From the NCBI RefSeq assembly GCF_003991155.1, contig NZ_CP031297.1: 64,000 nt of DNA; one strand, 5' to 3'. The stretch is from Escherichia coli. GTDB taxonomy: Bacteria; Pseudomonadota; Gammaproteobacteria; Enterobacterales; Enterobacteriaceae. The translations under genes were made by a program, and so were the position numbers. This document shows, piece by piece, positions 771 through 54,662 of the stretch (position 1 is the first letter of the stretch; each line of letters opens with the position of its first letter). The notes beneath the pieces are model-generated. The model was not told where the DNA came from, did no database searches, and saw only the letters and a program-made list of their open reading frames with translations.

Positions 771-788
771 ACTTTCACATGTGAAAGT
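771..788. promoter_or_regulatory. perfect 18-bp palindrome ACTTTCACATGTGAAAGT, copy 1 of 4 (candidate operator)
   Basis: Exact palindrome in a divergent intergenic region, about 60 bp upstream of the activator box at 847. Confidence 0.5.
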
Positions 789-846
789 CTCCCCGCTGTC
801 CACCTCGCACACTCCAAACGCCCAAACGCCCAAATAACTTGTCTAT

Positions 847-870
847 CTGCCCAAAATGGGCGCGTAAGCG
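847..870 (+). promoter_or_regulatory. AcaCD/SetCD-type activator box-like promoter element
   Basis: ctgcccaaaatgggcgcgtaagcg; shares G(C/T)CCnAAAnnGGGCnnnTAnnGCG with 10 other sites, all upstream of operon starts. Confidence 0.55.
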
Positions 871-952
871 TCCGATAGAAAGTAATTGTTAGTGAGATAT
901 TGACTACACGGAATATGGCTATATCATAGAATCATAAAATGATGCTGTAAAA

Positions 953-1339
953 GTGATATGTATGCCAAAGCAAGCAAATCATCTCCGTTTGAAGAAACCT
1001 TGCGCCAACTGTCCATTCCGGAAGGAGGGCGCTATCGAGCTGGCCCCTGGGCGATTAGAAGGCATCATCAACGACATCGTTGAAAACGACATGACGACGT
1101 TTCATTGCCACAAGACCGTGCACTCAAAGTCAGGTGGTGAATGGGATGAAGAGGGTAACTATGCACCTTCGGGACAAGAGTCGATGTGTGCCGGTGCTGC
1201 GGCTTACTTGATGAAAATAGGCAGGCCGACAGTGGCTATGCGAATTGCCTTTGCGTTTGGTGATGCAAAGGTGTCCGACTGGGACGAAGCTCAAGAGCTG
1301 GTTGTCGAGCCTTTGGTACAAGGGGACCGAAATGAGTAA
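953..1339 (+). CDS. hypothetical Cys/His-rich protein
   Basis: 128-aa ORF (alternative ATG at 962); CANCPFRK...FHCHK motifs; first ORF after the box at 847. Confidence 0.5.
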   Translation: MICMPKQANHLRLKKPCANCPFRKEGAIELAPGRLEGIINDIVENDMTTFHCHKTVHSKSGGEWDEEGNYAPSGQESMCAGAAAYLMKIGRPTVAMRIAFAFGDAKVSDWDEAQELVVEPLVQGDRNE

Positions 1340-1613
1340 GCGATATGCGGTAGTGCCGCATCCGAAACTGAAACGAGAGTACAAAGGTCGGCTGGTCAGA
1401 ACTACTCGGGTACTAAAAAACGGCTGGGGGTTGATCCCTCTAGGGGCTGTGGCAACGGTCACGCATCAGTCTCCCAAGGGATCAGAACTGACCTTTGAAC
1501 CATGCGACTGCTGCGGCCTGAAAGCCATTATCAGTCATGTAAGCATGGACTCCATTGAATTTATCGAACCGATTACTGAGGAAGAAGATGGACGAGAACA
1601 AGCTCAACATTGA
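1332..1613 (+). CDS. hypothetical protein (93 aa)
   Basis: Track ORF 1245 trimmed to an ATG that overlaps the upstream stop (ATGA coupling). Confidence 0.45.
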   Translation: MSKRYAVVPHPKLKREYKGRLVRTTRVLKNGWGLIPLGAVATVTHQSPKGSELTFEPCDCCGLKAIISHVSMDSIEFIEPITEEEDGREQAQH

Positions 1614-2262
1614 AACGGTCGATGGGCACAACGAGCTGGTAGTCAGCTTTTTGTCCAGAATGGTAAGCCTGAGTGACGAGGAAAAGCAGACAGTATTGTC
1701 CTGCCTTCCGGACACCGGCAAACAAACAATCACCCAGCTCTATGAGGCGCTGCGTTCTCAAGGGCACCAGGATCTTGCAGAGAAAGTCGAACCATACCTC
1801 CAGCAGGGGGTGTTTGGGCCGATCTTCGATAACGCCAAGTCCAAGGTGTTCGTTCGGGACGAAGCGCCTTTTTTCCTCATGGATGAAAATCCTTTGAACT
1901 GGGATGACGCTAAAGCATTCAATCGCCTACGTATGAGTACGACCTGTGTTCTTGGCCGTGGCGGCTGGACTATCGGTGAGCGCTTTGATGACCGCTTTGA
2001 TACCGAGGTGGGCGGAACACAGCTTATCGTCACTCAGTCACTCAACGAAAAAGGTGAGATTGAAGGAGGACTTCCTACCTCGATGTCGCTGAATGACTTT
2101 GCTGAGTTCCCTAAACAGCCAAGGCCTCCTCAAATAGTCGATTACCAGGAAGACAAGCGATACACGCTTGAGGAAGCGGAAGCTATCCCTGAGCTCGCAC
2201 CAGTGGTTCAGCGTCTGAAAGAGCGCATCGAAGAGTATGAGGAGAGAAGAGCCCATGATTGA
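1588..2262 (+). CDS. hypothetical protein (224 aa)
   Basis: ATG preceded by GAGGAAG; the track start at 1555 is TTG. Confidence 0.5.
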   Translation: MDENKLNIETVDGHNELVVSFLSRMVSLSDEEKQTVLSCLPDTGKQTITQLYEALRSQGHQDLAEKVEPYLQQGVFGPIFDNAKSKVFVRDEAPFFLMDENPLNWDDAKAFNRLRMSTTCVLGRGGWTIGERFDDRFDTEVGGTQLIVTQSLNEKGEIEGGLPTSMSLNDFAEFPKQPRPPQIVDYQEDKRYTLEEAEAIPELAPVVQRLKERIEEYEERRAHD

Positions 2263-2761
2263 CCTGACATGCCGCCTTTGTGCTGGTTCCGGTGTTTATG
2301 ACTTTTCCCCTTCCAAAGAAACCTGCGGTATGTGCCAAGGGCATGGGAAATTTGTTGACGCCAAAGCAATGCTGGTGGCTGCCATCGAGCTGGCAAAGAA
2401 GCAACGCGAGCCTGTCATTGAAGTGGTAATGGGGTTGGTGCTCCAGGGTGTGGATGTTAGAGGGAAGGAGCCTGGAGAGCGGTTCAAGGCTGCTCAGGCC
2501 TTTAACGCCCCAGGGCACAACCTATTACGATACGGGTGGGATGCTTGGGAGCTCTATGCCCTCCATGAGGGTGTAAGTCCAGAACTTGCATCGCTTGGCC
2601 GAAGTGTGATGCGCGAGTGGCATAGCCATTCATGGGGCCGGTTCAGTGGAGAGGTAGGCTTTAACGCCGCCGAGATCATGATCAAACAGGCCAAAGACAA
2701 CCCAGAAAAAGCAGAAGAGCGCTGGGCGTTCCTGCTTAGTGAAGAATGGATGGTGGAGTAA
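2255..2761 (+). CDS. protein with DnaJ-type zinc-finger repeats
   Basis: N-terminus MIDLTCRLCAGSGVYDFSPSKETCGMCQGHG carries two CxxCxGxG repeats; ATGA overlap with the upstream stop. Confidence 0.5.
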   Translation: MIDLTCRLCAGSGVYDFSPSKETCGMCQGHGKFVDAKAMLVAAIELAKKQREPVIEVVMGLVLQGVDVRGKEPGERFKAAQAFNAPGHNLLRYGWDAWELYALHEGVSPELASLGRSVMREWHSHSWGRFSGEVGFNAAEIMIKQAKDNPEKAEERWAFLLSEEWMVE

Positions 2762-3078
2762 TTGTCGTGACAGAACAAACCAATAAGAAATTGATGCTGG
2801 ATGAGTCTCCAGATATGCCCCTGCAATTCAAGTGGAGAAAGTTTGGTGGTGCGATTTTTACTGCCACGCAAACAATGGAGCACGTCAAGGAAGGACGTAA
2901 GCTCGGGCCGACTCCAGCAGGGATGCTACCTCAAGAAGTGTGGCTGAACCGCCTGATCGCTATGGAAGAAACCCTGCCACGAGGGAAGTTTTTTGACAGA
3001 TTCCGCCGCCGCGACAAAAACGAGCAGTATGACTTGGCCGCCGATCATCTCCGTCTTGTCGGACAGAAAAAGCGATAG
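2746..3078 (+). CDS. hypothetical protein (110 aa)
   Basis: ORF in operon context, overlapping the upstream gene end. Confidence 0.4.
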   Translation: MDGGVIVVTEQTNKKLMLDESPDMPLQFKWRKFGGAIFTATQTMEHVKEGRKLGPTPAGMLPQEVWLNRLIAMEETLPRGKFFDRFRRRDKNEQYDLAADHLRLVGQKKR

Positions 3079-3086
3079 GGGGATAG

Positions 3087-3587
3087 ATGAAAGCCCAGGC
3101 ATACCCACCATCAGTCATTCGTAAAGGCGCTGTGTTGTACGCAGCCCTTTATTACATCTCTGATGATGATAAAGCAAAGGTCGAGGTTACAGAGTGGATA
3201 GTTCGCTCTATTCAGAAACGACGCAACTCAACCAGCGATCAACGCTATGTCAATCTTGCCCAAAAGTTAGATGGGATTACGTGGGGGAAAAGGTCACGGA
3301 AGAATGGGGACTTTGGTTGGTTGCCATCTATACCGAGCTGGTGCTTGAAGCAGTTCCGGGAAGGTGGCGAATTGCCTTTTGGCGTTTATACGACGCGACT
3401 GGCCGCTCTCAAGTTTGCGAAAGTCAGCTTGCAGGAAGAGGTCCAATATTGCGAGGCCGAGCTGAAAAAGGCTCAGACAGAAGAGGATACTCAGGAACTC
3501 CAAGAGGAGCTGGCGGAGAACCAGAGACTTCTGAAAGCTGCTGGAGCAATGGTGAAGCGCGAGCAAAACAAGAAGAAAAGAGGTTGA
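3087..3587 (+). CDS. hypothetical protein with charged coiled-coil-like C-terminus
   Basis: 166-aa ORF; GGGGGA upstream; C-terminal EELAENQRLLKAAGAMVKREQNKKKRG. Confidence 0.45.
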   Translation: MKAQAYPPSVIRKGAVLYAALYYISDDDKAKVEVTEWIVRSIQKRRNSTSDQRYVNLAQKLDGITWGKRSRKNGDFGWLPSIPSWCLKQFREGGELPFGVYTTRLAALKFAKVSLQEEVQYCEAELKKAQTEEDTQELQEELAENQRLLKAAGAMVKREQNKKKRG

Positions 3588-3590
3588 CCA

Positions 3591-5018
3591 ATGTTACCGA
3601 TCGTCTCCCCCTCCGTAGTAACCAAACAACTTGCGTTCAATCGAGTAGGCGATAAACGCAAGGTTAGGGTTTCGTCCAACTTTTTGGATGTTATGGGGTT
3701 CAAGCCAGGTATGGGCATCGCCGTTGAGCCAGGGGAGGGGATGGGCGGTTTTTCGGTGATCCCAGCGACCGATGAACTACAGACACACCAGGTTTATCAG
3801 CGCCGGTATCAACCAAAGAGTCGCTCCAACAACCCGCTGGAAACCGTTATTGAGTTTTCTGGACAAGGGCTCATAGATAAGTGCTTCCCTCGCTATACAG
3901 AGCGTTTCCACGTCGAAATGCGAAAAGGTCGAGTAGTCTTCACTCCCGTCGCAAACAGAGCCTTTGCCATTGCTGATCGGTTCAGAAAAACCAGCCCTTT
4001 CCGTGCCTTTGTGGCATTGACTGGCGGGGTAGACATTCATGTTATGGAATCGCTTGGCTGGAAGGCTGAGATTGTTTTGGAACATCGTCCAGTTGAAGCC
4101 AGAGACAGAGCATCCGGGCGGAACCTGAGTGAAGTACATGCGCTCAATACGCTGGTGAACAGCTCCCCGCGTATCCTGCTGAATGAAGACATTCATCACC
4201 TGGAGCTGGATCGCCTTGGAGCCTTGCTGGCGGAGTGCCCACCAATTGGTTTGGCCCATTACTCGTTGGGGTGTGATGACCACTCAAACGCCAAAAGTCC
4301 AAGGGACAAAGAGCGTTCTCTTGAAGATCTCTCCACCATGCTCGACATGGTTTACCCGGCACTAAAACAGATCGAGGTCGTGAACCCTGCCGTCGTGCTG
4401 GTGGAAAACGTCCCGAACTTCAAAGCATCCGGAGCCGGGGCGATGATGGGAACGACACTGCGGCGGATGGGGTACTTCCTCACTGAGATGGTCTTGAACG
4501 GTCTGGATTTCGGCGCGTACCAGGGGCGAGAACGCTATTACATGGTGGCGTCGGTCTTCCCTGGGTTCGTTCCACCGAAACCTGAGCAGAGAGCTGGTGG
4601 ACGATTGTGGCCGGTGATCGAGAAGCACCTCGGGGATTGTGCAGACGTCACAGCGTTGAAGTCAATTCAGGCCAGAGAGTCAACTTCTCGCAGGATGCCT
4701 GCGTTCTTGACGAGAGAAAGCACCAGTTGCCCGACCATCCTCAAGTCTCAGGATCGTGGGGTAAAGGATGCAGTGTACATCCAAGACGGTGGCCGCATTT
4801 ACAAGCCATCGGTCGATCTGGTTCAGGAGTTGATGTCGATACCTGATAGCTTTGATATTTCGTGGATGGCAAAAGAACAAGCGACAGAAACACTTGGGCA
4901 GAGTGTGGATTACAGATTGCATTCAGCGGTCATGGCCGCAGTTCGGGATCACCTGAATGTGAATTGCGGTCGCCATACCGTGGTGCAGCACGGTATCAGA
5001 AGTAAGGAAGGTAAATAA
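3591..5018 (+). CDS. C5-cytosine DNA methyltransferase paralogue with AbrB/SpoVT-like N-terminal segment and atypical catalytic motif
   Basis: ENVPNF (motif VI), QGRERYYMVAS (VIII), TLGQSV (X). Aligns with 55614-57239. The motif IV position reads LGCDDHS instead of PCxxxS. N-terminal RKVRVSSNFLDVMGFKPGMGIAVEP resembles an AbrB-type swapped hairpin. Confidence 0.65.
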   Translation: MLPIVSPSVVTKQLAFNRVGDKRKVRVSSNFLDVMGFKPGMGIAVEPGEGMGGFSVIPATDELQTHQVYQRRYQPKSRSNNPLETVIEFSGQGLIDKCFPRYTERFHVEMRKGRVVFTPVANRAFAIADRFRKTSPFRAFVALTGGVDIHVMESLGWKAEIVLEHRPVEARDRASGRNLSEVHALNTLVNSSPRILLNEDIHHLELDRLGALLAECPPIGLAHYSLGCDDHSNAKSPRDKERSLEDLSTMLDMVYPALKQIEVVNPAVVLVENVPNFKASGAGAMMGTTLRRMGYFLTEMVLNGLDFGAYQGRERYYMVASVFPGFVPPKPEQRAGGRLWPVIEKHLGDCADVTALKSIQARESTSRRMPAFLTRESTSCPTILKSQDRGVKDAVYIQDGGRIYKPSVDLVQELMSIPDSFDISWMAKEQATETLGQSVDYRLHSAVMAAVRDHLNVNCGRHTVVQHGIRSKEGK

Positions 5019-5674
5019 TGGCAGTCATTTACTACGGCGAGGGAACCCATGACGCCGGTTTCGTCGGGTTCCGTGTCGCACGAACAGTTGGGGTGGCGGA
5101 TGATTACCGGCAGGAATACTTCTCCTTGAGAGAGTATTCCTACGCAACAGCTCACCGGCTGGCCTACAGCTTGGACCGAAAGTGGGAAGCTGAGGCAGAA
5201 GAGGTGAAGCGTCAGAATAAGACTTGTAAGCGGCGACGCAACTCCGGGCCAAATATCATTGCTGAGGGGCTGAGGGCTTATATCAGTATCGAGAACCGGA
5301 GCCGGATGGGGGTGAAGAGAACCTACTTCGCACCTTGTTTTCTCGTCACAAAGCCAGGCTACGGCAATGGGGATATTGTTTTCAGGATTTCCACTCATGG
5401 CTACGCAGAAGCCTACGAAAAGGCGGTGGAAAAATATTGTGAGATCCATGATTTGACGGATGAGCAGTATGTTGAGTTGCTTGACCGTATGCCGAGTACA
5501 GAGGTGTTCACTGGATACCTGCTGAATGCTCTTTTAATACGCGGTCATCGCGCCACAAAAGCTGAAATACTGAGTAAGCTGGGGGCTGCGAAGAATGAAG
5601 ATGACATCACCAATAGCAAAGGGAAAAGCGGCCACAACAGAGTGCGTTGCCCAGAGTATCGGTGGGCGCAATAA
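5018..5674 (+). CDS. hypothetical protein, possibly two AP2-like DNA-binding repeats
   Basis: 218 aa; ATAATG overlap with the upstream stop; GFVGFRVAR..YFSLREYSYATAHRLAYSLDRKWE and a second similar unit; weak call. Confidence 0.4.
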   Translation: MAVIYYGEGTHDAGFVGFRVARTVGVADDYRQEYFSLREYSYATAHRLAYSLDRKWEAEAEEVKRQNKTCKRRRNSGPNIIAEGLRAYISIENRSRMGVKRTYFAPCFLVTKPGYGNGDIVFRISTHGYAEAYEKAVEKYCEIHDLTDEQYVELLDRMPSTEVFTGYLLNALLIRGHRATKAEILSKLGAAKNEDDITNSKGKSGHNRVRCPEYRWAQ

Positions 5675-5729
5675 CAGCGCCAGATGTTCAAACCATGTTT
5701 TATAGCAACACCTCTTTGGGGGCGGAATT

Positions 5730-6347
5730 ATGTTTTTTGATAACAAAGTAGAATCTCACTCGCTCGTAATGGGAGCCAGCGGGAAGGGCAAATCGGTCTT
5801 GTCCGAACAAGTGCGGAAAAACGCGAGGCTGCGCGGTGATCTGCTGGTGGATACTGAGATGTACCGTGAAGGTCGAGGGTTGAAACCATACGAGCATGAG
5901 TACGCTCGTCGCTTAGTTCTGGGGCTAAGTGGACCGTTGCCGCGTGAACTGCGTGGGAAGCCGGTGACGGTTATCTCTGATGTGTCCAGACCAAAAAAGG
6001 TAAAGCGTCAGCCAAAGCAATTTGTTAAGACCGTAAATGGCGTCACCCTTGAACGCCAATTGGTGGCAGATGCAAGAGACCAGTTGGAAATGCAAACAGG
6101 CGTCTGGCTCAAACAACCTCAGCTCATCGAGCTGATGGAAGAGTCGGGCATAGACGAAACTCTAGCCGATTTTGGTGAGGCTGAAACACAGATCCGAGAA
6201 ATGCTGGCGGATGCGTTGGCGATGAAACTGGTAGGGCGCTCATGGCCCAAGTGTGGAGCCCTCTATAACGCGGCAGAAAAGTCCGACGTTAACTTTTCCT
6301 CCGAGCTTGATGCTGCGGCAAAAGAAGCTGGATACATGGTTCGCTGA
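5730..6347 (+). CDS. hypothetical protein with P-loop-like GASGKGKS
   Basis: 205-aa ORF; GGGGGCGGA upstream. Confidence 0.4.
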   Translation: MFFDNKVESHSLVMGASGKGKSVLSEQVRKNARLRGDLLVDTEMYREGRGLKPYEHEYARRLVLGLSGPLPRELRGKPVTVISDVSRPKKVKRQPKQFVKTVNGVTLERQLVADARDQLEMQTGVWLKQPQLIELMEESGIDETLADFGEAETQIREMLADALAMKLVGRSWPKCGALYNAAEKSDVNFSSELDAAAKEAGYMVR

Positions 6348-6554
6348 ATGGGATTTGGTGTGGACAAGATAGATCGGCAAAGTTGGCTCGTTAAATTCAG
6401 GCGAGCGAAGTGTCAGGACACTTTAGACACGATGCGGGATGCGGCCATTCGCAACTATGAAGGGAATATTCGTGTTATCGCGGATATTGTATTGGCCCAT
6501 GAGGCGAGAGAGACAGAAATTGAAAAAGGGATGTTTTGTCTAATAGTTAGATAG
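6348..6554 (+). CDS. hypothetical protein (68 aa)
   Basis: ATG abuts the upstream TGA (TGAATG). Confidence 0.3.
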   Translation: MGFGVDKIDRQSWLVKFRRAKCQDTLDTMRDAAIRNYEGNIRVIADIVLAHEARETEIEKGMFCLIVR

Positions 6555-6579
6555 TCTGATGAGCTATCAGGTGGTGATT

Positions 6580-6858
6580 ATGAAAAAGAGAATACTTCAT
6601 CTGCCCGTAAAAAAGATTTACTTCGATCAGATCAAATCTGGAGAAAAACCAGATGAATATCGCCTCGTCACAGACTACTGGATAAAAAGACTAGAGGGGC
6701 GCGAGTATGATGAAGTCCATGTTAAGTGTGGCTACCCAAAGGCTGGAGATATGTCCAGGATAGAGATTCGTCCTTGGCGTGGCTTCTCAAGGAACGTCAT
6801 AACGCACCCGCACTTTGGAGATTATCCGGTTGAAGTATTCGCCATCCATGTGAATTGA
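6580..6858 (+). CDS. ASCH (PUA-like) domain protein
   Basis: MKKRILHLPVKKIYFDQIKSGEKPDEYRLV... fits the ASCH N-terminal pattern; the track start at 6559 is also possible. Confidence 0.5.
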   Translation: MKKRILHLPVKKIYFDQIKSGEKPDEYRLVTDYWIKRLEGREYDEVHVKCGYPKAGDMSRIEIRPWRGFSRNVITHPHFGDYPVEVFAIHVN

Positions 6859-6922
6859 TTTTGGTATTCTGATTTAAAACTATTGTAGCTCAGGTATCAA
6901 AAGAACTTGGGTAATTAAAGAT

Positions 6923-6950
6923 AAGGGGCCGACGGCCCCTTAATTGTTTT
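6923..6950. terminator. bidirectional intrinsic terminator between convergent units
   Basis: AAGGGGCC-gac-GGCCCCTT 8-bp stem followed by a T-rich run. Confidence 0.65.
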
Positions 6951-7437: not shown

Positions 7438-7451
7438 ACTTAATTCCTCTA

Positions 7452-10476: not shown

Positions 10477-10549
10477 CGTGTCGTTCCTCATAAAAAATTG
10501 TCGATGAGCCCATTCTAAAAGGGGGGGGATGGAAAGCTGGTTTCTCAAA

Positions 10550-17124: not shown

Positions 17125-17502
17125 ATGAAAGTAACTAATAGACTCCAACTGCTGGCACTGGGGCTGTGTATAGCCGGTACTGCCATCGCGGCTCCTGATG
17201 TGCTCAATGACGACGCAAAGCTCAAGAACCTTGAGAAGGTGTGTCCCGACTGTCAGATGGTGGCAAAAGATGTACTCAATCTGCGGGTTGAAAACTGCCA
17301 GCTCAAAGACACTTCCAGTGCAATGATGATTGGCACCATGCAAAATGACCCTATGTTTTCGTTTATGCTGGCTGTACACACAGCGGCAGGCTCGGAGGCA
17401 TACAAAACGGTAGTTGGTGCCGCTGGCAACCATGTTGACTGTGAAAACCCGTTGAACTGGATCAAGCTGACCCAGCAAGCGATTAAAGGTGGCAAAGTCT
17501 AA
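17125..17502 (+). CDS. secreted Cys-containing protein (125 aa)
   Basis: Signal peptide MKVTNRLQLLALGLCIAGTAIAAPD; GAGAGGAA upstream. Confidence 0.45.
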   Translation: MKVTNRLQLLALGLCIAGTAIAAPDVLNDDAKLKNLEKVCPDCQMVAKDVLNLRVENCQLKDTSSAMMIGTMQNDPMFSFMLAVHTAAGSEAYKTVVGAAGNHVDCENPLNWIKLTQQAIKGGKV

Positions 17503-38794: not shown

Positions 38795-39655
38795 TTACGC
38801 TTCTGGGTAAACAAATAACTCTGCTTTTCCCTGATCAAGAAGGTAAGGGAAAGCAACTTTTTCGCCATTATCCAGCTCAACCGATTTTGGAGCAAGGTAG
38901 AGGTAGGCCCAAGCTGGTAGCTGTTTGCTAATAGCTGCGTAGATCGCTTGCTGAGGAGCATGGCTTGCTGCCCCATTACCGACATTCACAAAGTTGTATG
39001 CGGTCTCATGGCCTGATGTGAAGGCATACGCTGTACCTTGAACGCCAGAGACAAAATTAGGAGCTGACCCTAGGCGAGGCTCCACGATTTTCACCTTAAC
39101 GGAACACATGTCAGCTACCTTACTTTGTCCGTTCACCCACGTCGGGCAACCCCATTCATTCTTGTAGAACTGATAGGTTAGGCGACCGTCTTTGTCATAC
39201 AGAAGCGTGAAATTGGCACCCAAATCAGTCAGCGCTGACTCAATGGAAACTTTCACATGTGAAAGAAATTTGGCCTGAGCGTCTGCCGGTGAAACTGCTT
39301 CGTTAGCAGGCATCCAAGCGATCAAGCTATTGCGAGCGCCATGCTGTTTGGGGCCGATAGCCCAGTTCGCAAGGTTGACCAAGCCACCTTGCCAGTCGGT
39401 CATTCCGAGCTGAGGGGACATGTAGCCAGACAGCACGTAGGCTGCCCCAAACGTTTTGGTGTCGGTCAGACGCTCCAGCTTGTCACGCGGAACAGAAGCG
39501 TCTTGGATGCCTGTTACCAGGCCACCGGCCTCCGCGATGTTGTAAGCGCGACTGTGATTGGTTTTGTACGCTGTGGGTTCGTAACTGCTGGTGGATGCAC
39601 AGCCAGATAGAGCTGCTACAGCCAGAGCCACGGTGGTGATTAAAGCCTTTTTCAT
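38795..39655 (-). CDS. lipoprotein (286 aa)
   Basis: MKKALITTVALAVAALSGCAS lipobox. Confidence 0.55.
   Translation of the reverse strand: MKKALITTVALAVAALSGCASTSSYEPTAYKTNHSRAYNIAEAGGLVTGIQDASVPRDKLERLTDTKTFGAAYVLSGYMSPQLGMTDWQGGLVNLANWAIGPKQHGARNSLIAWMPANEAVSPADAQAKFLSHVKVSIESALTDLGANFTLLYDKDGRLTYQFYKNEWGCPTWVNGQSKVADMCSVKVKIVEPRLGSAPNFVSGVQGTAYAFTSGHETAYNFVNVGNGAASHAPQQAIYAAISKQLPAWAYLYLAPKSVELDNGEKVAFPYLLDQGKAELFVYPEA
39250..39265. promoter_or_regulatory. palindrome CTTTCACATGTGAAAG, copy 3 of 4 (inside the lipoprotein CDS)
   Basis: Exact 16-bp core within coding sequence. Confidence 0.35.
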
Positions 39656-40527: not shown

Positions 40528-40584
40528 TTCTGTTTAGCAAAGGTGAGCTATATTTGAATCATCTTAGTCGCTCTGCGGCTATAG

Positions 40585-40616
40585 GTGAGATAGCTGGTCT
40601 CCGAAAACAAACAGCA
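40585..40616 (+). promoter_or_regulatory. conserved stem-loop module copy 1 (arms GAGA/TCTC, loop TAGCTGG, tail CGAAAACAAACAGCA)
   Basis: gtGAGAtagctggTCTCcgaaaacaaacagca, about 60 nt downstream of the box at 40499. Confidence 0.7.
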
Positions 40617-40644
40617 TCTAGTCTTATGCCGTATGGCATTACTT

Positions 40645-41034: not shown

Positions 41035-41066
41035 TAACTGTCGCTGAGTAATCTTCGACACTTTCA

Positions 41067-41128
41067 AACCCATCGGGGCAACCATACCCCGACGGGGATG
41101 TTGCCCCTTTTTGCTTAGGAGCAACATC
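41067..41128 (+). terminator. structured spacer containing an intrinsic-terminator-like hairpin plus anti-SD
   Basis: GGGGCAAC (41075)...GTTGCCCC (41100), an 8-bp stem followed by T5. gatgttgc (41097) is the exact complement of gcaacatc (41121) next to the ATG. Confidence 0.6.
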
Positions 41129-41523: not shown

Positions 41524-41600
41524 GGGAGTAGCCTCCAGGAGAGGCTACTCTCCTCGCTCCTTAAAAGTCTTCTTACTCATGGTGAATACCATCAGTAAGC

Positions 41601-41721
41601 AGATTTTGTTCTCTTCGGAGAGCGAAAAGTGCGATAGCTGGTCGCCAAAAACAAACAGCAAATTAACGTTAATTTACTAGCCCAACCGGGCGCATCCGCC
41701 CGGTTCGGGACGTGGTGCGCC
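41601..41721 (+). repeat. 121-bp perfect direct repeat, copy A
   Basis: agattttgttctcttcggagagcgaaaagtgcgatagctggtcgccaaaaacaaacagcaaattaacgttaatttactagcccaaccgggcgcatccgcccggttcgggacgtggtgcgcc, identical to 46436-46556. Confidence 0.9.
41629..41660 (+). promoter_or_regulatory. conserved stem-loop module copy 2 (GCGA/TCGC)
   Basis: gtGCGAtagctggTCGCcaaaaacaaacagca. Confidence 0.7.
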
Positions 41722-44238: not shown

Positions 44239-44315
44239 AAACCCCACGGGGGCACTCATGCCCCGAGGGGGTCATGGTGTCCTCAAACCGTTCATTCGTG
44301 AATTGGAGAAACACC
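44239..44315 (+). promoter_or_regulatory. structured gene leader upstream of bet
   Basis: CCCCacGGGGGCactcatGCCCCgaGGGGG (44242-44271). catggtgt (44273) is the exact complement of acaccatg (44311), which includes the start codon. Confidence 0.65.
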
Positions 44316-45305: not shown

Positions 45306-45367
45306 CCCCAACGGGGGGGACTCCCCCGCTGGGGGAGATCTCCCTCCTAACCATTGGAGAGAGGTCC

Positions 45368-46378: not shown

Positions 46379-46435
46379 GTGGGGGATTTTCCCCCGCTTT
46401 CCCTTGGGGATTCTGGGAGTCTCCAACGGAAAGCA

Positions 46436-46556
46436 AGATTTTGTTCTCTTCGGAGAGCGAAAAGTGCGATAGCTGGTCGCCAAAAACAAACAGCAAATTA
46501 ACGTTAATTTACTAGCCCAACCGGGCGCATCCGCCCGGTTCGGGACGTGGTGCGCC
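46436..46556 (+). repeat. 121-bp perfect direct repeat, copy B
   Basis: Identical to 41601-41721. Confidence 0.9.
46464..46495 (+). promoter_or_regulatory. conserved stem-loop module copy 3 (GCGA/TCGC)
   Basis: Within repeat copy B; preceded by GGGGGattttCCCCC and the GCTTTCCC...CGGAAAGC pairing. Confidence 0.7.
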
Positions 46557-46577
46557 CCCAACTTTTTGGAGTGCATC
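46516..46577 (+). promoter_or_regulatory. structured gene leader
   Basis: Same hairpin as 41681. ggtgcgc (46549) pairs with gtgcatc (46571) via two G-U pairs, next to the ATG. Confidence 0.6.
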
Positions 46578-47855: not shown

Positions 47856-47939
47856 TAGTCACTTCAACTAAACCGACCCGGAGGGGATAGCCATTCCCTC
47901 CAGGGGTGGACTATCTCCTTCCCTACCAGGAGAAAAGAT

Positions 47940-49736
47940 ATGTCCAAAAAACGCACCATTTACAGCGCTCTACCAATCGTGGCCGCAGCCTATGGTGAAA
48001 AACTCGGTGTCAAAGTCGCCATCGGTAACGATGACGCATACACCGATGGTAAGACCATCGTGGTTCCGAATATCCCCGACGACTATCCTCACATGGATGC
48101 TGTCTGGGGGTATTTGGCCCATGAAGCAGCCCATGTCCGGTTTACGGACTTTGGTGTTGAGCGCCGCAGAGGTCTTCATGCTGAGTTGTCCAACGTTTTG
48201 GAGGACTGCCGCATAGAACGGGCCATGATGGAACTCTTCCCCGGTACGTCGCAGACCCTGAATGAGGTTGCTCGCTATATGGCTCAAGCTGGTCATTACG
48301 AGCACGTCACAGACAAAGAGGCCCCTGCCTCCATTCTGACAGGGTTTTGTTTGTACTGGTTGCAAACCAAGGCTGTAGGGCAATCCGTCCTTCAACCCTA
48401 TCTCGATTCGGCTACCCCCGTATTCGAGCGCGTGTTCCCTCAGGGTGTTGTTGTTCGGCTGAACGCTTTACTGCGTAAGGCTGTGAACACTAAGTCAACC
48501 GCAGAGGTGACATCCTTGGCCGACCAAATCATCAAGATGATCGAGGAGGAAAAGGAGAAAGAAGAGCAAAAGCCCCAGAATGGTCAGGATGGTAACAACC
48601 AGCAGAATGCTGGTGGCAACCAACCTCAGAACAGTCAGGGCGGAAGTGGTAACGATCAAAACCAAGGGCCTGATGCCAATGGTGGTGATCAGCAAGGTAA
48701 AGACCAGAAGCAAGACGATGCTAACGGGAAATCTGATCCGAAAGGACAGGGCGACCAAGGCAAGTCGGATACTGATGGTGGCAGCAAGGCAGGACAAAGC
48801 CAGGCTGGTGGCAATTCTGACGCGGCGAAACAAGACGCGGCCAAAATGCTCCAGCAGGTTCTGAATGCCGGTGCCGGTGATTTGCGTGGTGACGCGCATG
48901 ATGCACTTAAAGCCGAGCTCAACCGGGTGGCTCAAGATAAGGGGGACAGTAGCTATATGACTGTTCGCTCTGCTGTGAACACCCAGGACAACCCTGCTGT
49001 TGGCAAAAGCCTGGTAGGGGATGTGAAGAGCACCACTTCAAAGATAAGAACGCAGCTCTACGGATTGGTCCAGGCCAGCCAGCGAGTTGCTCACCGTAAC
49101 CAACGATCAGGGAAGCGTGTGGATGCTCGGAAACTACATCGTGTAGTGACGGGTGATACCCGCGTATTCCTCAAGCCAGAAGCCAAGAAACGCCCTAATA
49201 CGGCGGTTCACATCCTGGTTGATATGAGCTCCTCGATGGCCTACAAGGCCGCCAATGGAAAGGAGCGTCAAGACATTGCGCGGGAAGCGTCCTTGGCTAT
49301 TTCGATGGCTCTGGAAGCAATACCCGGCGTAAACCCGGCAGTCACCTTTTTTGGTGGCAACCGGAACCAGCCAGTGTTCAGTGTCGTGAAGCATGGAGAT
49401 ACGGTTCAGAATCGGGCCGGTCGGTTTGGGTTCAAAGCAACTGGCGGTACGCCTATGGCGGAAGCTATGTGGTATGCAGCTTTTGAACTCACCAAGACCC
49501 GTGAAGAGCGAAAAATGTTGATCGTAGTGACTGACGGGCAGCCTCAAAGAGCCCCGGCATGTCGCTCAGTGATTGACCTCTGTGAACGAAGCGATGTTGA
49601 GGTGATCGGCATAGGGGTAGAGACTACCGCAGTGTCAGGACTGTTCCAAAAGAACATTGTCATTGATGATGCGGCAGCTCTGCAACGCACACTGTTTAAG
49701 TTGATGGAGCGGTCATTGACTGCTTTTGCAGCTTAA
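47940..49736 (+). CDS. vWA-domain protein (CobT-like) with N-terminal HExxH motif
   Basis: 598 aa; LAHEAAHV; Gln/Gly/Asp-rich linker; MIDAS-like VDMSSSM and GGTPMAEA. Confidence 0.7.
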   Translation: MSKKRTIYSALPIVAAAYGEKLGVKVAIGNDDAYTDGKTIVVPNIPDDYPHMDAVWGYLAHEAAHVRFTDFGVERRRGLHAELSNVLEDCRIERAMMELFPGTSQTLNEVARYMAQAGHYEHVTDKEAPASILTGFCLYWLQTKAVGQSVLQPYLDSATPVFERVFPQGVVVRLNALLRKAVNTKSTAEVTSLADQIIKMIEEEKEKEEQKPQNGQDGNNQQNAGGNQPQNSQGGSGNDQNQGPDANGGDQQGKDQKQDDANGKSDPKGQGDQGKSDTDGGSKAGQSQAGGNSDAAKQDAAKMLQQVLNAGAGDLRGDAHDALKAELNRVAQDKGDSSYMTVRSAVNTQDNPAVGKSLVGDVKSTTSKIRTQLYGLVQASQRVAHRNQRSGKRVDARKLHRVVTGDTRVFLKPEAKKRPNTAVHILVDMSSSMAYKAANGKERQDIAREASLAISMALEAIPGVNPAVTFFGGNRNQPVFSVVKHGDTVQNRAGRFGFKATGGTPMAEAMWYAAFELTKTREERKMLIVVTDGQPQRAPACRSVIDLCERSDVEVIGIGVETTAVSGLFQKNIVIDDAAALQRTLFKLMERSLTAFAA

Positions 49737-49754
49737 CAGGAAGTGAAACGACAA

Positions 49755-49788
49755 ACGGCTATCCCTTCGGGGGTGGCCGTTTTTATTT
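49755..49788 (+). terminator. intrinsic terminator
   Basis: ACGGCTATCCC-ttcg-GGGGTGGCCGT followed by ttttattt. Confidence 0.7.
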
Positions 49789-49797
49789 GGAGAGTCT

Positions 49798-50133
49798 ATG
49801 AACCAATTCCATTCATCTTTGGATTTGTATCATCGGAACAAAGGTAGAAGGGCTACAGTGCCGGAGACGCCTTTTTTACTGCTTGCTAAGCGCATTCCTC
49901 CGATGTACTGGAGACTGTTCCAGGGTGTTACTTTGGATAGTCGTATGGGATACACAGGCAGGCGGCAGTTCCACCGTCTTGGGCAAGCAATCGACTGGGC
50001 AAAGTCATCAGTTGGCGATTCCTGGTCAAATAAGCGCTTTCACAAGCCGGTAGGCCTCGATGTATTGCTGGCCTGTACTGCGAGTAAGGTGCCTGAACAT
50101 CTGGTCGAAGAACTGAAAAGACGGGGCAGTTGA
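49798..50133 (+). CDS. hypothetical basic protein (111 aa)
   Basis: GGAGAG upstream. Confidence 0.4.
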   Translation: MNQFHSSLDLYHRNKGRRATVPETPFLLLAKRIPPMYWRLFQGVTLDSRMGYTGRRQFHRLGQAIDWAKSSVGDSWSNKRFHKPVGLDVLLACTASKVPEHLVEELKRRGS

Positions 50134-50149
50134 TGCGTCTTTGAGCTTT

Positions 50150-50174
50150 GCACCCGAAAAGGGCAGTTTGAGCG
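50150..50174 (+). promoter_or_regulatory. AcaCD/SetCD-type box
   Basis: gcacccgaaaagggcagtttgagcg. Confidence 0.5.
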
Positions 50175-50295
50175 TTCCTGTTCACACAGCTCTCGTGGAA
50201 CAATCAAAGTGAGGAGGGAATACCCTCCCACTTTCTCAGAGGCCTTCATTGAGGGTTGCTGAGAAAGTGAATTTTGTCCTCTCTGAGGGCGAAAC

Positions 50296-50327
50296 GTGCG
50301 ATAGCTGGTCGCCAAAAACAAACAGCA
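50296..50327 (+). promoter_or_regulatory. conserved stem-loop module copy 4 (GCGA/TCGC)
   Basis: gtGCGAtagctggTCGCcaaaaacaaacagca. Confidence 0.7.
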
Positions 50328-50397
50328 TTCAACCTCAGCCTAAGGGCGCACTGCGCCTGACAGGCTCTGTGTGCCCAAGTTACTTTAAGGAGCACAC

Positions 50398-50937
50398 ATG
50401 TCTCATCTGAACAATCTCAAATCCGTAATGATCTCTCTCGCCGCCGAACATAAGCTGCCTGAAATCTACCAGGATGACATCACTACCGATGTGGAGTCTC
50501 TGGATCGATTCGATGGTTTACGTCTGGTCTGGCTGTTGCGGTCTTGCGGCAGCGTATTGGTGCCAGCGGAAGTTGGCGTTAATCCGATCTATATCACCCA
50601 TTGGTTGTGGTCTAACCACGGTCAACAGGTGGTTCCATTCTCTGTGGATACCCGCACGGGGTTGATTGAAAAAATCGACTTCGAGCAAGCTGAAAAGCTG
50701 ATCATGCAGATGCCTTGCAACCTCTCTTCATTGCAGAACAAGGAATACTTGGTTGACCAGGTAAACCGAGTATTGCAACGAGGTTGTGAAATGCGTATCT
50801 GGGGTATCTTCGAGTCTCCAAGCTCGGTGGAATCCGTTGGTGGTTGGAAAGAGTGGCAGAGCTATTTCAGCTCTACTGGGAATCGACTGATGGCCGATTT
50901 CGTTGGTAAAGCCATTCGATTCACCAACCCTCGATAA
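50398..50937 (+). CDS. hypothetical protein (179 aa)
   Basis: AAGGAGCACACATG leader; gtgtgc upstream is complementary to gcacac. Confidence 0.5.
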   Translation: MSHLNNLKSVMISLAAEHKLPEIYQDDITTDVESLDRFDGLRLVWLLRSCGSVLVPAEVGVNPIYITHWLWSNHGQQVVPFSVDTRTGLIEKIDFEQAEKLIMQMPCNLSSLQNKEYLVDQVNRVLQRGCEMRIWGIFESPSSVESVGGWKEWQSYFSSTGNRLMADFVGKAIRFTNPR

Positions 50938-51027
50938 ATCGCCGTTCAACCATTAACCCTAATTAACCCTATGGGGCTCCGATAGCCCTGAGGGGACGGG
51001 GCTCCGCAATCGCAATAAGGAGTCCCT

Positions 51028-51528
51028 ATGAAAAACCTATCAGCTTTGGAAGCAGTTCTTGACTACGACAAACCTTCTCGACGTTTTCTTGATGAGCTCA
51101 ACGAAAACCAGATGAAGGATTTGTCCGGGGAAATCTTCGCCAAGCTCTACTGGAGCAAGCGTAATCCCCAGTGGTACGAGAAAGACACCAATCGGCTGTT
51201 TGCACGACTTCGTTGGGTTCAGCGCATCATCAAGAAGCGCTTGAAAACCGGCAAGGTTAAACCTGAACTGACAGAAAATGGTTCAGTGATGGAGCGCTTC
51301 AACTTCCCTTATGGTGACACTCTCGATTTCTTCCATCGGTACTTGCGACATCCCAAATGGGAGGTTGTGTATCAAGAATCGGGGTGCAGTGCCTTTTGGA
51401 AAAATGAAGCAACGCTTGAGCTATGCACCTACTGCGAAGGTGATGTGGTCATGATGAAGGCTCCTGATGAAGCAACCTTCTTTCGTGATTGCAATCGCCT
51501 TAGCTGGTGGTATGCAGATAACGCTTGA
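51028..51528 (+). CDS. hypothetical protein (166 aa)
   Basis: AAGGAG upstream; structured leader. Confidence 0.5.
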   Translation: MKNLSALEAVLDYDKPSRRFLDELNENQMKDLSGEIFAKLYWSKRNPQWYEKDTNRLFARLRWVQRIIKKRLKTGKVKPELTENGSVMERFNFPYGDTLDFFHRYLRHPKWEVVYQESGCSAFWKNEATLELCTYCEGDVVMMKAPDEATFFRDCNRLSWWYADNA

Positions 51529-51601
51529 TCTTAATCCCTAACCAGGGGCGAACCGGCCCCTGATGGGAGCATGGTGCGCCCCATCTATGATGGAGGACGC
51601 C

Positions 51602-52486
51602 ATGTTCAAATCATCAGTATGCTCCTACGAAAACAGGGGGCCTTACGGAAACAACAAGTACCGAGGCAACTGCTCGGGCTTTATCGTTAAAGACTTCATT
51701 GAGTCTTACATGAGAAAGCCGAACGGGCTGGTGGCAGACCCAAGTGTTGGGGGTGGCTCTAGCATCGACGTTGCCAATGAACTTGGTGTCCGTTTCAAAG
51801 GGACAGACTTGCATCAGGGGTTCAACCTGTTGCGGGATGACTTCCTTTCGTTCCTCGGAGAGCCTGCACACCTGATCTGGTGGCACCCTCCTTACTGGGA
51901 CATGATCCAGTATTCAGGTAAGCAGTGGGGCGAGCCCAACAAATGGGATATGAGCCGCATGAATTTGCCTGAGTTCGTTGAAGCCCTTGAGCTGGCCGTT
52001 ATGAATATTCATGACGCCTGTGAGCGAGGAGGGCATTACGGAATCCTCATGGGAAACCTGAGGCGCGATGGGGATTATTTCAACCTGTCCAGCCTTGTGG
52101 AACGTATCGCACCTGGGAAGCTGGTGGATGAGATCATCAAAACACAGCACAACTGTGTGAGTGACCGAACTCAGTATTCCGGGAAGCTGGTGCGTATCGC
52201 CCATGAAAAGCTGTTGGTGTTTCGTCGTAACGACGTTGCCTCATCGCTCTGTCTTCTTGCTGCCGTACACCGTCGAGCAACCAATATGGTTTCGACTACG
52301 TGGAAAGCTGCAATACGCCGAACCCTACAGGGGAAAACGTTGAAGCTGGAGCAGATTTACAAAGAGATTGAACCCTACGCAAAGCATCGAGAGAACAACC
52401 ACTGGCAAGCAAAGGTCAGGCAAGTTCTTCAAGATGCCAGGTTCTTTATTCGCATCGAGGTAGGTGTCTATGCACTTGCTGAGTAG
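51602..52486 (+). CDS. amino (N6-adenine or N4-cytosine) DNA methyltransferase, orphan
   Basis: Trimmed to MFKSSV... after GGAGGA; DPSVGGGSS (SAM motif) and WWHPPYW (xPPY catalytic motif). Confidence 0.55.
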   Translation: MFKSSVCSYENRGPYGNNKYRGNCSGFIVKDFIESYMRKPNGLVADPSVGGGSSIDVANELGVRFKGTDLHQGFNLLRDDFLSFLGEPAHLIWWHPPYWDMIQYSGKQWGEPNKWDMSRMNLPEFVEALELAVMNIHDACERGGHYGILMGNLRRDGDYFNLSSLVERIAPGKLVDEIIKTQHNCVSDRTQYSGKLVRIAHEKLLVFRRNDVASSLCLLAAVHRRATNMVSTTWKAAIRRTLQGKTLKLEQIYKEIEPYAKHRENNHWQAKVRQVLQDARFFIRIEVGVYALAE

Positions 52487-52551
52487 CCCAACCGGGGCGT
52501 GACATCCCGGAGGGGATTGGTCGCGCTCATCAACAACAAAGGAGCGTGACC
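52487..52551 (+). promoter_or_regulatory. structured gene leader
   Basis: CCGGGGcgtgacatCCCGG. ggtcgcgctc (52519) is complementary to gagcgtgacc (52542). Loop gcgtgacat (52497) mimics the SD-start segment. Confidence 0.65.
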
Positions 52552-52776
52552 ATGAACGTACAACTTCAAGCCAGCAACAATGTGCTGTTGGCGCAAATCG
52601 AAAGCAAAGGCCTCACTGTTGAAACGCATTGTCGCAGTGGCTTTTGTGGCATGTGCCGGGTTCGTCTACTCGAAGGTCAAGTGGCTTATGACGAGACGCC
52701 CATCGCATTTGTCAAAGAAGGGGAAGTGTTGGTTTGCTGCGCTAAAGCAAAAACCGATGTGACCTTGGAAATTTAA
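52552..52776 (+). CDS. YfaE-like 2Fe-2S ferredoxin
   Basis: 74 aa; CRSGFCGMCRVRLLEGQV...GEVLVCCAKAKTD parallels the E. coli YfaE Cys pattern (from memory). Confidence 0.6.
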   Translation: MNVQLQASNNVLLAQIESKGLTVETHCRSGFCGMCRVRLLEGQVAYDETPIAFVKEGEVLVCCAKAKTDVTLEI

Positions 52777-52837
52777 CCCATCCGGAGGAGCCTTTCCTGC
52801 GGGTGGGGCTCCTCTATCCATTACGAGGAGAAACACT
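52777..52837 (+). promoter_or_regulatory. structured gene leader
   Basis: ggaggagc (52784) in the hairpin, anti-SD gctcctc (52808), SD gaggag (52825). Confidence 0.65.
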
Positions 52838-53227
52838 ATGTCTATCAATACCAAAGTTGAACAAATCGCATACGGTCATGCTACCGCTCTAGTGCTCAGT
52901 GAACTGGGCCAACAAGAGAATTGGTGCAAGGCTTATGAGTATTTGTCTGAGTGTGTAGAACGGGGAGACGAACCTGAGGATCTGGTCGTTTGGCAACCGT
53001 TTGAGCACTGGGAATGGAAAGACATTCTGGAGCAGATCGAGAGCGAAGCCGAGTCTCTGCTTTCGACTATTAAGTCGGTTTTAGGCTTGGCCCACAAAGG
53101 CATCATTCAGTCAGCAATTGACTGCTCTCTGGATTCGGACATGACCCAGCTTGACCTGATTGGAATGGTCGAGCTCGGAAGTGAAATCGAAGATGGGGAG
53201 TGTGCTGGAGGTGGCTATGCAGCTTAA
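52838..53227 (+). CDS. strongly acidic small protein (129 aa)
   Basis: D/E residues far outnumber K/R by eye. Confidence 0.45.
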   Translation: MSINTKVEQIAYGHATALVLSELGQQENWCKAYEYLSECVERGDEPEDLVVWQPFEHWEWKDILEQIESEAESLLSTIKSVLGLAHKGIIQSAIDCSLDSDMTQLDLIGMVELGSEIEDGECAGGGYAA

Positions 53228-53669
53228 CCGATACACGGCCAGGGAGTCTGACAAAAGTCGGATACTTCGGACCATAGGCTGGTGCAAGCGCAACCACCTT
53301 ACACTTGCCGGTCTTCCATACGAGGACAATCTTGCAGGAAGTGATGGGATCAGCATAGAGATCATCACTCCTCCTGGTATGTCGCGGGAAATGTTGGAGC
53401 AAGCCGTCAGAGAGGGGTATTCAGAGCGAGATGTCGTAAGGCATCGCATTCTGGAGTGCCCTGTCGGTTGGTTCATGGAAGCTGATGGCAAGGCATTTGA
53501 TCATGAAGTGTTCCACGATTACGTGGTGGCTCATGGTTATGGCGAACCTTCCAGCGAAGCCTATGAGCTGGCGGAGCGGTGGTTCTGGCAGGGCAACGAT
53601 TATGCGTTGATAGCTGCGGAAATAGTTGCTCGTGATCTTTGTGTTCGTGATGACGAAGATGAGGACTGA
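53217..53669 (+). CDS. hypothetical protein (150 aa) ending DDEDED
   Basis: Trimmed to MQLNRYTARE... after GGAGG; overlaps the upstream gene end. Confidence 0.45.
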   Translation: MQLNRYTARESDKSRILRTIGWCKRNHLTLAGLPYEDNLAGSDGISIEIITPPGMSREMLEQAVREGYSERDVVRHRILECPVGWFMEADGKAFDHEVFHDYVVAHGYGEPSSEAYELAERWFWQGNDYALIAAEIVARDLCVRDDEDED

Positions 53670-53673
53670 TCCT

Positions 53674-53949
53674 ATGGATGCTGTAGCGCATATAGCAGCA
53701 GATAACCTTGTACCGGCATGTGGAGGTGCAGAGAAGCCGTTTACCGTTAGTGGTAGACAGTGGCTTTACTGCTATCACCCAGCCAGTGGGAGGCACTGCT
53801 ACTTAGACCTCGATAATGACCGTCCAGTCTGGCATCGAGGATTTCATCCTGCTTTTCATCCTGAGCTTGAGTTCGCTGATGAAGCTGAGTTGCTTCGACC
53901 AGTTGAGCGAAAGCCTGACCATGAAGAGCTGGAGGATTTTTACTTTTAA
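53674..53949 (+). CDS. hypothetical protein (91 aa) ending EELEDFYF
   Basis: Trimmed to MDAVAHIAAD... after GAGGA. Confidence 0.4.
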   Translation: MDAVAHIAADNLVPACGGAEKPFTVSGRQWLYCYHPASGRHCYLDLDNDRPVWHRGFHPAFHPELEFADEAELLRPVERKPDHEELEDFYF

Positions 53950-54006
53950 CCCACGGGGCCGCTCTTCCTGATGGGAGACGGTCCTCCATTCTCAAAGGAG
54001 AAGACC

Positions 54007-54198
54007 ATGAAAGATCACAGTCAAACGATTGTGTTCCCTGGGAACAATGTTGAATCACTTGCTGAGGCTAACGCCATGTTGAGCGCTGTGTCGGAAGATG
54101 CACGTAAAGCCAGCAATACGGAAGACAAACGTGACCTTGAATCGCTTCAAGGCTGGCTGGAAGAGAACATCAATTCTCAACTGGCAGGCGTGAAGTAA
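54007..54198 (+). CDS. hypothetical protein (63 aa)
   Basis: Trimmed to MKDHSQ... after AAGGAG. Confidence 0.4.
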   Translation: MKDHSQTIVFPGNNVESLAEANAMLSAVSEDARKASNTEDKRDLESLQGWLEENINSQLAGVK

Positions 54199-54208
54199 CT
54201 ATGACTGT

Positions 54209-54266
54209 AACCCCACTGGGGGCTTCATGCCCCTGTGGGGGCATGGTGCCCGTAAAAGGAGTCACC
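54209..54266 (+). promoter_or_regulatory. structured gene leader
   Basis: CCCCacTGGGGGCttcatGCCCCtgtGGGG. catggtgc (54242) is complementary to tcaccatg (54262), which includes the start codon. Confidence 0.6.
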
Positions 54267-54620
54267 ATGAATGCAGTGAAGATGATCCAGAAGGAAAACC
54301 AGCTTGAGCTGCCGCTTTTCTTCCTGGATGAAGAGCCGAAGACCGCAGAAGTCATTCCATTTGAGCCAAAGCCTGAATGGACTGATGATGAGGTAAGGCA
54401 GTTACGTGATGGGCTTTTATGGCATAGCCTTAGAGTCCTTGCTGATGGTCGAGCTGGAAGTGAAATCAAGCAGGAAACGATGGCTTGGGTGATGTCCGAT
54501 GAGGTACATCCATTCTCATTTGTGGTCTGCTGCGATGAAGCAGGTTACGATCCATCTGGAGTAAGGGAAGGCGTGAAGTCTATCCTAAACCGCTTAGCGC
54601 GGGTTAAAGCGGGGGGTTAA
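54267..54620 (+). CDS. hypothetical protein (117 aa)
   Basis: Trimmed to MNAVKMIQKE... after AAGGAG. Confidence 0.45.
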   Translation: MNAVKMIQKENQLELPLFFLDEEPKTAEVIPFEPKPEWTDDEVRQLRDGLLWHSLRVLADGRAGSEIKQETMAWVMSDEVHPFSFVVCCDEAGYDPSGVREGVKSILNRLARVKAGG

Positions 54621-54644
54621 CCCCCTGCTTTCCCAGTGGCATCG

Positions 54645-54662
54645 ACTTTCACATGTGAAAGT
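54645..54662. promoter_or_regulatory. palindrome ACTTTCACATGTGAAAGT, copy 4 of 4
   Basis: Exact copy lying inside the GCTTTCCC...CGGAAAGC scaffold upstream of stem-loop copy 5. Confidence 0.5.

Follow-up and report, generated by a model that had tools for sequence, protein, structure and literature searches.

The 64,000-nt stretch of Escherichia coli DNA analysed here (contig NZ_CP031297.1; hereafter the window) carries four exact copies of a perfect palindrome. These are very probably four of the 14 parS sites that serve parA-parB-053, the ParABS partition system (type Ia) of IncC plasmids. In support of the identification are the exact motif, the IncC backbone in which it occurs, and the published description of IncC parS (Nucleic Acids Res 2024;52:2498, PMC10954446), to which the motif was traced by a full-text literature search with the 12-mer TTCACATGTGAA. 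As the sites were published for IncC in 2024, the finding is already known and adds nothing for IncC itself. The residual interest lies in a possible tuning by ParB of AcaCD-driven transfer genes at promoter-proximal copies, two of which are in the window, and in the reach of the parS sequence among unrelated elements, which would shape which of them can live side by side and which displace one another. Multidrug resistance is to a large extent carried by IncC plasmids, and these need ParB and parS to be inherited stably.

In plasmid R55, IncC parS has been described as a 22-bp inverted repeat, AAAC-TTTCACATGTGAAA-GTTT, with an invariant 14-bp core and 14 copies per plasmid (PMC10954446). Purified ParB, the product of the second gene of parAB053, shifted 22-bp probes from PparA, R55_174 and SGI1 DR2 in electrophoretic mobility shift assays. 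The 14-bp core alone was not bound, and a 4-bp insertion at the centre of parS led to the loss of both binding and the incompatibility that depends on parS. Stabilisation of a mini-replicon with a single site, the SGI1 DR2 copy, required both ParA and ParB, while 053 was dispensable in that assay. The same work placed a parS copy over the -10 box of PparA, through which ParB represses its own operon, and inferred an extra backbone-encoded co-repressor of PparA. Ten of the R55 sites are intergenic (near R55_13, _14, _24, _29, parAB053, _55, _74, _109, _170 and _174) and four are intragenic (R55_6, _08, _91 and _130) (PMC10954446).

In the window, the 16-mer CTTTCACATGTGAAAG occurs exactly four times, at 772-787, 18191-18206, 39250-39265 and 54646-54661, where dinucleotide-preserving shuffles gave an expectation of 0.00 copies. 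The view of the first-pass annotation that four such palindromes in 64 kb lie beyond chance is thus borne out. A degenerate family around the exact copies was also considered and rejected, as no further copies of CTTTCACATGTGAAAG with one to three mismatches were found in the window. At three of the four copies (771-788, 18190-18207 and 54645-54662) the symmetry extends to the 18-bp palindrome ACTTTCACATGTGAAAGT, while the copy at 39250 has an A before and after it and is palindromic over 16 bp only, a distinction already drawn in the annotation and confirmed from the flanking bases. When the four contexts were aligned, the only likeness outside the motif was that of the activator boxes downstream of the first and second copies; what recurs is therefore the motif alone, with no longer duplicated segment around it. 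In each copy the 14-bp core TTTCACATGTGAAA is intact and the next base is G, with GT following in three; copies 1 to 4 match the 22-bp parS consensus at 21, 21, 19 and 20 of 22 positions, respectively.

By sequence, the window is IncC (A/C2) plasmid backbone. It differs at 2 positions from bases 32001-96000 of the Aeromonas hydrophila plasmid pR148 (NC_019380.1), and its first 20 kb are matched over at least 80% of their length by more than 900 plasmids, the majority of which are typed IncC, MOBH and MPF_F. A count of the motif on the complete element, as the annotation had proposed, was made on pR148 reassembled from four stretches. It yielded 14 exact TTTCACATGTGAAA cores, the next base being G in all 14 and GT following in 13. 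One of these cores, at 29358, lies 63 bp upstream of the parA ATG (29421). In fact, the pR148 sites and the 14 sites of R55 agree one for one in their order and in their intragenic or intergenic status, and from these two properties the window copies 1 to 4 would be R55_55, R55_74, R55_91 (the intragenic one) and R55_109.

Some further features of the pR148 set can be recorded here. The only core with a single mismatch, TTTCACATGCGAAA, is at 146996 in a tyrosine recombinase gene; the exact intragenic core at 147441 follows 445 bp later. Eight of the 14 copies are found in the approximately 28 kb from repA up to where the window starts (pR148 4541-32773), and parS sites are therefore skewed to the replication and partition side of the backbone. 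An asymmetry of the flanks was looked for as well, since the right-hand GT is emphasised in PMC10954446: half-flanks deviated in five of six cases on the left and one of six on the right, which by a binomial estimate is not significant, and no asymmetry is claimed.

The parA-parB-053 operon occupies pR148 29421-31712, which leaves about 290 bp between its end and the window, so that ParB, the binding protein, is not encoded in the window itself. This ParB is a protein of 393 residues that matches the Pfam families KorB (E 1.7e-38) and ParB_N (1.2e-13) and also HTH_ParB. Domain searches likewise identified ParA as an ATPase of the ParA/MinD type and 053, encoded after parB, as an HTH_43-type winged-helix protein. 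The nearest solved relative of IncC ParB is RK2 KorB (8QA8, E 9e-21), followed by Noc and Spo0J. Its GERRWRA sequence aligns with the arginine patch of these solved relatives, the patch by which ParB proteins bind cytidine triphosphate (CTP). A second protein with a ParB-like helix-turn-helix (HTH_ParB) is encoded on pR148 at 25274-26212.

By analogy with such relatives, ParB is likely to load onto every parS in the form of a CTP-dependent clamp, from where it would spread or slide along the DNA. The dispersed sites together would build a partition complex that is segregated by ParA, and those just upstream of promoters (772 and 18191) may have an additional effect on transcription, comparable to that of KorB at its OB sites. 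The four window copies are presumably bound by ParB as the other copies are. The annotation had proposed the operator of a dimeric regulator. What stands of that proposal is a sequence-specific protein site whose binder is most likely a symmetric dimer or tetramer; the binder, however, would be ParB and not an as yet unknown small regulator, and the main documented role is that of a centromere, together with autoregulation at PparA.

Conservation in IncA plasmids and frequency in E. coli

Comparison with the related IncA plasmids indicates that the sites are maintained by selection. The IncA plasmid CP119511.1 encodes a ParB 88.5% identical to that of IncC. It has the core together with its flank, without any change, at the orthologous positions of all four window sites and of three further sites, for a total of seven. 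Eight cores were found in the two IncA stretches examined, including the orthologues of all four window sites. The 100-bp flanks of the seven sites are 81.6% identical between IncC and IncA over 1438 aligned columns. At that rate, the probability that a given 16-mer would remain intact is 0.038, and that of four intact copies would be about 2e-6 under neutrality. From these comparisons, the parS sites are under purifying selection.

A 30-nt probe over the second site found matches in only 144 of 5426 complete E. coli genomes, in a survey whose sensitivity required about 20 matching bases. On plasmids the probe matched at 2740 places and on chromosomes at 115. The median for a positive genome was 22 places; this corresponds to about 11 sites, because both strands of the palindrome were counted. 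At that sensitivity, the motif is plasmid-specific and is not equally frequent in unrelated DNA of the host. Plasmids of 68 kb in E. coli, with about eight sites each, were considered as a possible second plasmid family and proved to be deleted IncC derivatives. Taken together, the shuffles, the conservation in IncA and the E. coli survey rule out a chance origin of the four copies.

Several points do weigh against the assignment to parS. The par operon lies outside the window, and the link to ParB depends on the window being IncC backbone. The probes used in the published binding assays were other copies, those of PparA, R55_174 and SGI1 DR2. The third copy lacks the conserved T after G, the sole one of the 14 copies to do so, and matches at 19 of 22 positions only; it is also intragenic, and coding constraint could account for part of its conservation. 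CTP binding, clamp formation and spreading by IncC ParB are predictions from homology.

The four sites and their neighbourhood

The first copy (769..790) has the core between AAAC and GTCT and is intergenic, between the divergent vcrx035-like (492-635, minus strand) and vcrx036-like (962-1339, plus strand) genes. The AcaCD activator box of the vcrx036-like promoter, TGCCCAAAATGGGCGCGTAA, is found 60 bp downstream of it (848..867, plus strand). The second copy (18188..18209), with GAAC and GTTT as its arms, is likewise intergenic and directly follows a GC hairpin that trails the coding sequence (CDS) 17502-18164. The last gene of the traI-traD operon region is on one side of this copy and small open reading frames (ORFs) preceding traL are on the other, and the AcaCD box of the vcrx068/traL operon promoter, TGCCCAAAATGGGCCGTAAC (18255..18274, plus strand), begins 48 bp downstream. 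Two copies just upstream of activator boxes had been noted in the annotation, and the boxes indeed begin at 848 and 18255, i.e., 60 and 48 bp after the respective 18-mers. The AcaCD-type boxes of the window (TGCCCAAAATGGGC...) resemble the AcaCD sites listed in Table 1 of PMC4207636.

The third copy (39247..39268; AAAC and GAAA) is intragenic and encodes LSHVK within a CDS for a 286-aa product (38795-39655, minus strand). The product begins MKKALITTVALAVAALSGC, and the lipobox in this sequence identifies it as a lipoprotein, in agreement with the annotation. The fourth copy (54643..54664; CGAC and GTTT) is intergenic, between the small hypothetical genes CDS 54201-54620 and 54755/54812-55156. 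It falls in a repeated intergenic module, of which it occupies the fifth of six copies. The annotation had put it inside the scaffold of that copy, which is roughly right; it is within the module, in the variable spacer, 11 bp upstream of the conserved 3' part (54673-54746).

The conserved parts of the six modules are at 40548-40621, 41592-41665, 46427-46500, 50259-50332, 54673-54746 and 58455-58528. Each module consists of an upstream GC hairpin and a CTTTCCCAAAGG-like box, a variable spacer, and a conserved segment (...GTGCGATAGCTGGTCGCCAAAAACAAACAGCA), with a small hairpin (GYGRT/AYCRC) that shows two covarying pairs. The module might serve the operons on the ssb/bet/exo side as a promoter or leader. 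At its gathering thresholds, Rfam gave no matches in the window, the six-copy module included. A family of GC-rich hairpins, AACCCCACGGGGGC...GCCCCGAGGGG, also recurs in or near intergenic regions of the window, at 41066-41096, 44240-44270, 50965-50995, 54209-54239 and 63737-63767.

Transcriptional, structural and other-ligand readings

Considering the positions of the first two copies, it is conceivable that their main job is transcriptional, with ParB, or ParB and a partner, modulating the adjacent AcaCD-dependent promoters in the manner of RK2 KorB at its class II OB sites. We think it rather unlikely that the copies at 772 and 18191 mainly serve this purpose, or have a real regulatory effect at all, although such an effect is compatible with a centromere role and would couple the level of the partition protein to the expression of transfer genes. 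A ParB with a KorB domain and 14 dispersed palindromes recall RK2 and its 12 OB sites. An AcaCD-like box occurs within 100 bp of five of the 14 pR148 sites, and within 100 bp in 18% of 150 distinct parS contexts, as opposed to 5.4% of random positions, an enrichment that is uncorrected for the preference of both motifs for intergenic DNA; the remaining 82% of the contexts have no such box nearby. In IncA, and in elements of Vibrio albus and Paraglaciecola, parS likewise stands behind the upstream terminator and ahead of the traL-operon AcaCD box. Both parS copies of SGI1 are 10-25 bp upstream of AcaCD boxes, and knockout of the DR1 parS lowers the copy number of SGI1; the authors of that work noted parS close to AcaCD boxes at four promoters of IncC as well as in the two SGI1 repeats, and offered co-regulation with AcaCD as a hypothesis (PMC10954446). 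Moreover, Pvcrx035 and Pvcrx036 were constitutive in lacZ fusions in the absence of the plasmid (PMC8373056), which would fit a missing plasmid-encoded repressor. However, no recognised AcaCD promoter adjoins the third and fourth copies. Among four relatives, the spacing between parS and the box at the traL operon is 10, 47, 47 and about 95 bp, a variability that disfavours a fixed protein-protein contact, and fixed phasing of parS with the AcaCD box was rejected on the same spacings.

A structural role, in which the palindrome folds into a hairpin, either in RNA, as a terminator or a site of processing, or in single-stranded DNA during transfer, is extremely improbable. The palindrome is perfect, the second and fourth copies come just after the ends of CDSs and are followed by T-rich runs, and the fourth can be extended to a stem of 13 pairs (-14.7 kcal/mol). 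Nevertheless, at three of the four sites the core RNA hairpin is a weak stem of 6-9 pairs (-4.0 to -8.6 kcal/mol), a pattern scan called no site resembling an intrinsic terminator, a GC-rich stem with a U-run behind it, at any of the three intergenic copies, and a separate strong GC hairpin already precedes the second copy. One copy (39250) is also within a CDS. Above all, the core is invariant rather than covarying: its letters are the same in all 14 copies of the plasmid, and they recur unaltered in about 150 distinct contexts that span many genera. An invariant core without compensatory changes speaks for base-specific recognition and not for structure. The published 4-bp central insertion points the same way, as it abolishes function while the symmetry is kept (PMC10954446). 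The hairpin with a 7-bp stem and a CATG loop that the annotation had entertained is accordingly given up. Another protein as the ligand, whether the second ParB-like HTH protein, the winged-helix 053 or a host factor such as CRP, is also very improbable, if marginally less so. The first two are both plasmid-encoded, and the additional backbone co-repressor inferred for PparA also speaks for this reading. Purified ParB alone binds specifically, however, and 053 is dispensable for stabilisation (PMC10954446); another plasmid protein is therefore an unlikely ligand. The absence of the motif from the vast majority of E. coli genomes makes a host regulon unlikely. CRP sites have the form TGTGA-N6-TCACA, and the palindrome has the wrong half-site order and spacing for one, reading TCACA-TG-TGA with overlapping half-sites; the annotation was right to set CRP aside.

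Other mobile elements and known systems

The 18-mer was also sought in a scan of one genome per species, 596 Gb in all, where the counts are of the matches listed. At least 120 stretches contained it, where sequence length alone would predict about 9 (596 Gb / 4^18), a strong over-representation. Homologues of IncC backbone ORFs, at 25-100% identity, are held by 68 of the 120 listed stretches. These IncC-related stretches include IncA/C-like plasmids of Vibrio mytili, V. albus and V. sinensis, SGI1-like islands, and mobI-bearing islands in Marinobacter and Idiomarina. In the SGI1-like loci among the matches listed, which have homologues of SgaC and TraN, the core comes about 45 bp after traN. 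About eight of the listed matches look unrelated, four of them from Heimdallarchaeota and the rest from metagenome-assembled genomes (MAGs) of Firmicutes or Bacteroidota. The Heimdallarchaeota MAG matches (L014 6634, L071 327, L081 76 and L088 4021) were rejected as parS; they belong to a hairpin, gcggACTTTCACATGTGAAAGTccgc, in a conserved tRNA-like gene, possibly an intron, and are coincidental. A stretch of Photorhabdus caribbeanensis (L020 5842-7582) encodes homologues of ParB (65% identical) and 053 (88%), with a parS core approximately 330 bp upstream; no ParA homologue was detected in this 8-kb stretch.

Two betaproteobacterial stretches without IncC backbone genes have arrays of exact TTTCACATGTGAAA cores directly upstream of their own parA-parB. 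In Cupriavidus pampae (L100 4896-5600), three exact cores occur within 950 bp of parA, and in a Limnohabitans MAG (L094 1729-2495), five are found between parA and a DUF3701-type integrase gene. The ParBs of these two are 47% identical to each other and 26-33% identical to IncC ParB. Another family of elements, in marine bacteria (Vibrio, Shewanella, Gynuella, Marinobacter and others), carries 26-bp palindromes, AAAAACTTTCACATGTGAAAGTTTTT, at gene junctions. Its gene block has an FlhC-like gene whose product is 28% identical to AcaC, followed by 208-, 123- and 703-aa ORFs, and was found in marine gammaproteobacteria and Proteus terrae (L123 813-5700, L064, L056, L102, L076, L089, L041, L110 and L126). 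The 703-residue product is secreted, and one AAAAACTTTCACATGTGAAAGTTTTT palindrome overlaps the start of its ORF (MKKKLSHVKV). The 208-, 123- and 703-aa ORFs and two neighbours gave no matches in Pfam or NCBIfam.

Such occurrences suggest that the parS sequence is shared more widely than by IncA/IncC and SGI1. One could go further and see in TTTCAC-AT-GTGAAA a widely shared parS "dialect" that is read by very divergent ParBs, an idea that we put forward tentatively and would sooner doubt than believe. If it were true, many unrelated mobile elements could be connected through incompatibility and piracy of centromeres like those between IncC and SGI1, and IncC ParB would be a KorB-like CTP-switch regulator at the promoter-proximal copies (772 and 18191).

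Among known systems, the window sites and the parS of R55 have in common the core TTTCACATGTGAAA, the G(T) that follows it, the AAAC/GTTT arms, the number of 14 copies per plasmid and the order of the sites. There is no difference in kind between the two; the copies used in the mobility shift assays were simply others.

The KorB-OB system of RK2/RP4 (IncP-1) is similar in several respects. Its ParB protein also combines a KorB DNA-binding domain with a ParB N-terminal domain, and its structure, 8QA8, is the nearest one to IncC ParB. About 12 palindromes are spread over the RK2 backbone, where they overlap promoters, lie 50-200 bp upstream of them or are intragenic, and here too the partition protein represses its own operon. 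The RK2 operator, however, is the 13-bp sequence TTTAGC(C/G)GCTAAA (TTTAGCSGCTAAA), which is unrelated to the (A)CTTTCACATGTGAAAG(T) of IncC. A domain search found no match of 053 to the KorA/TrfB family, the protein being a winged helix of the HTH_43 type. Furthermore, the documented repression by IncC ParB is that of its own operon. Because the operator differs and no KorA-type partner was found, IncC parS is not regarded as a member of the KorB-OB family.

The parS consensus of chromosomal ParB/Spo0J systems is reportedly TGTTTCACGTGAAACA, a 16-bp palindrome with abutting half-sites. The IncC site shares with it the half-site TTTCAC/GTGAAA, and the proteins share a GERRxRA motif in the ParB N-terminal domain and, in IncC ParB, a helix-turn-helix homologous to those of Spo0J and Noc. 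The two sites differ in that IncC parS has two extra central bases (TTTCAC-AT-GTGAAA) and has C/G, not G/C, beside the half-site. The canonical chromosomal sequence TGTTTCACGTGAAACA was not found in the window at up to three mismatches. Presumably, the different spacing would keep the plasmid and chromosomal systems orthogonal. Neither the relationship to chromosomal parS nor CTP is mentioned in the description of the IncC system (PMC10954446).

Finally, the DR1 and DR2 sites of SGI1 are mimics of IncC parS, with the same 22-bp inverted repeat, and are bound by IncC ParB. They differ in being carried on a parasitic island without par genes of its own, which hijacks partition and expels the plasmid; islands of this type copy parS in order to ride on an IncC plasmid and then displace it. 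Unlike those mimics, the four copies in the window would be the plasmid's own parS.

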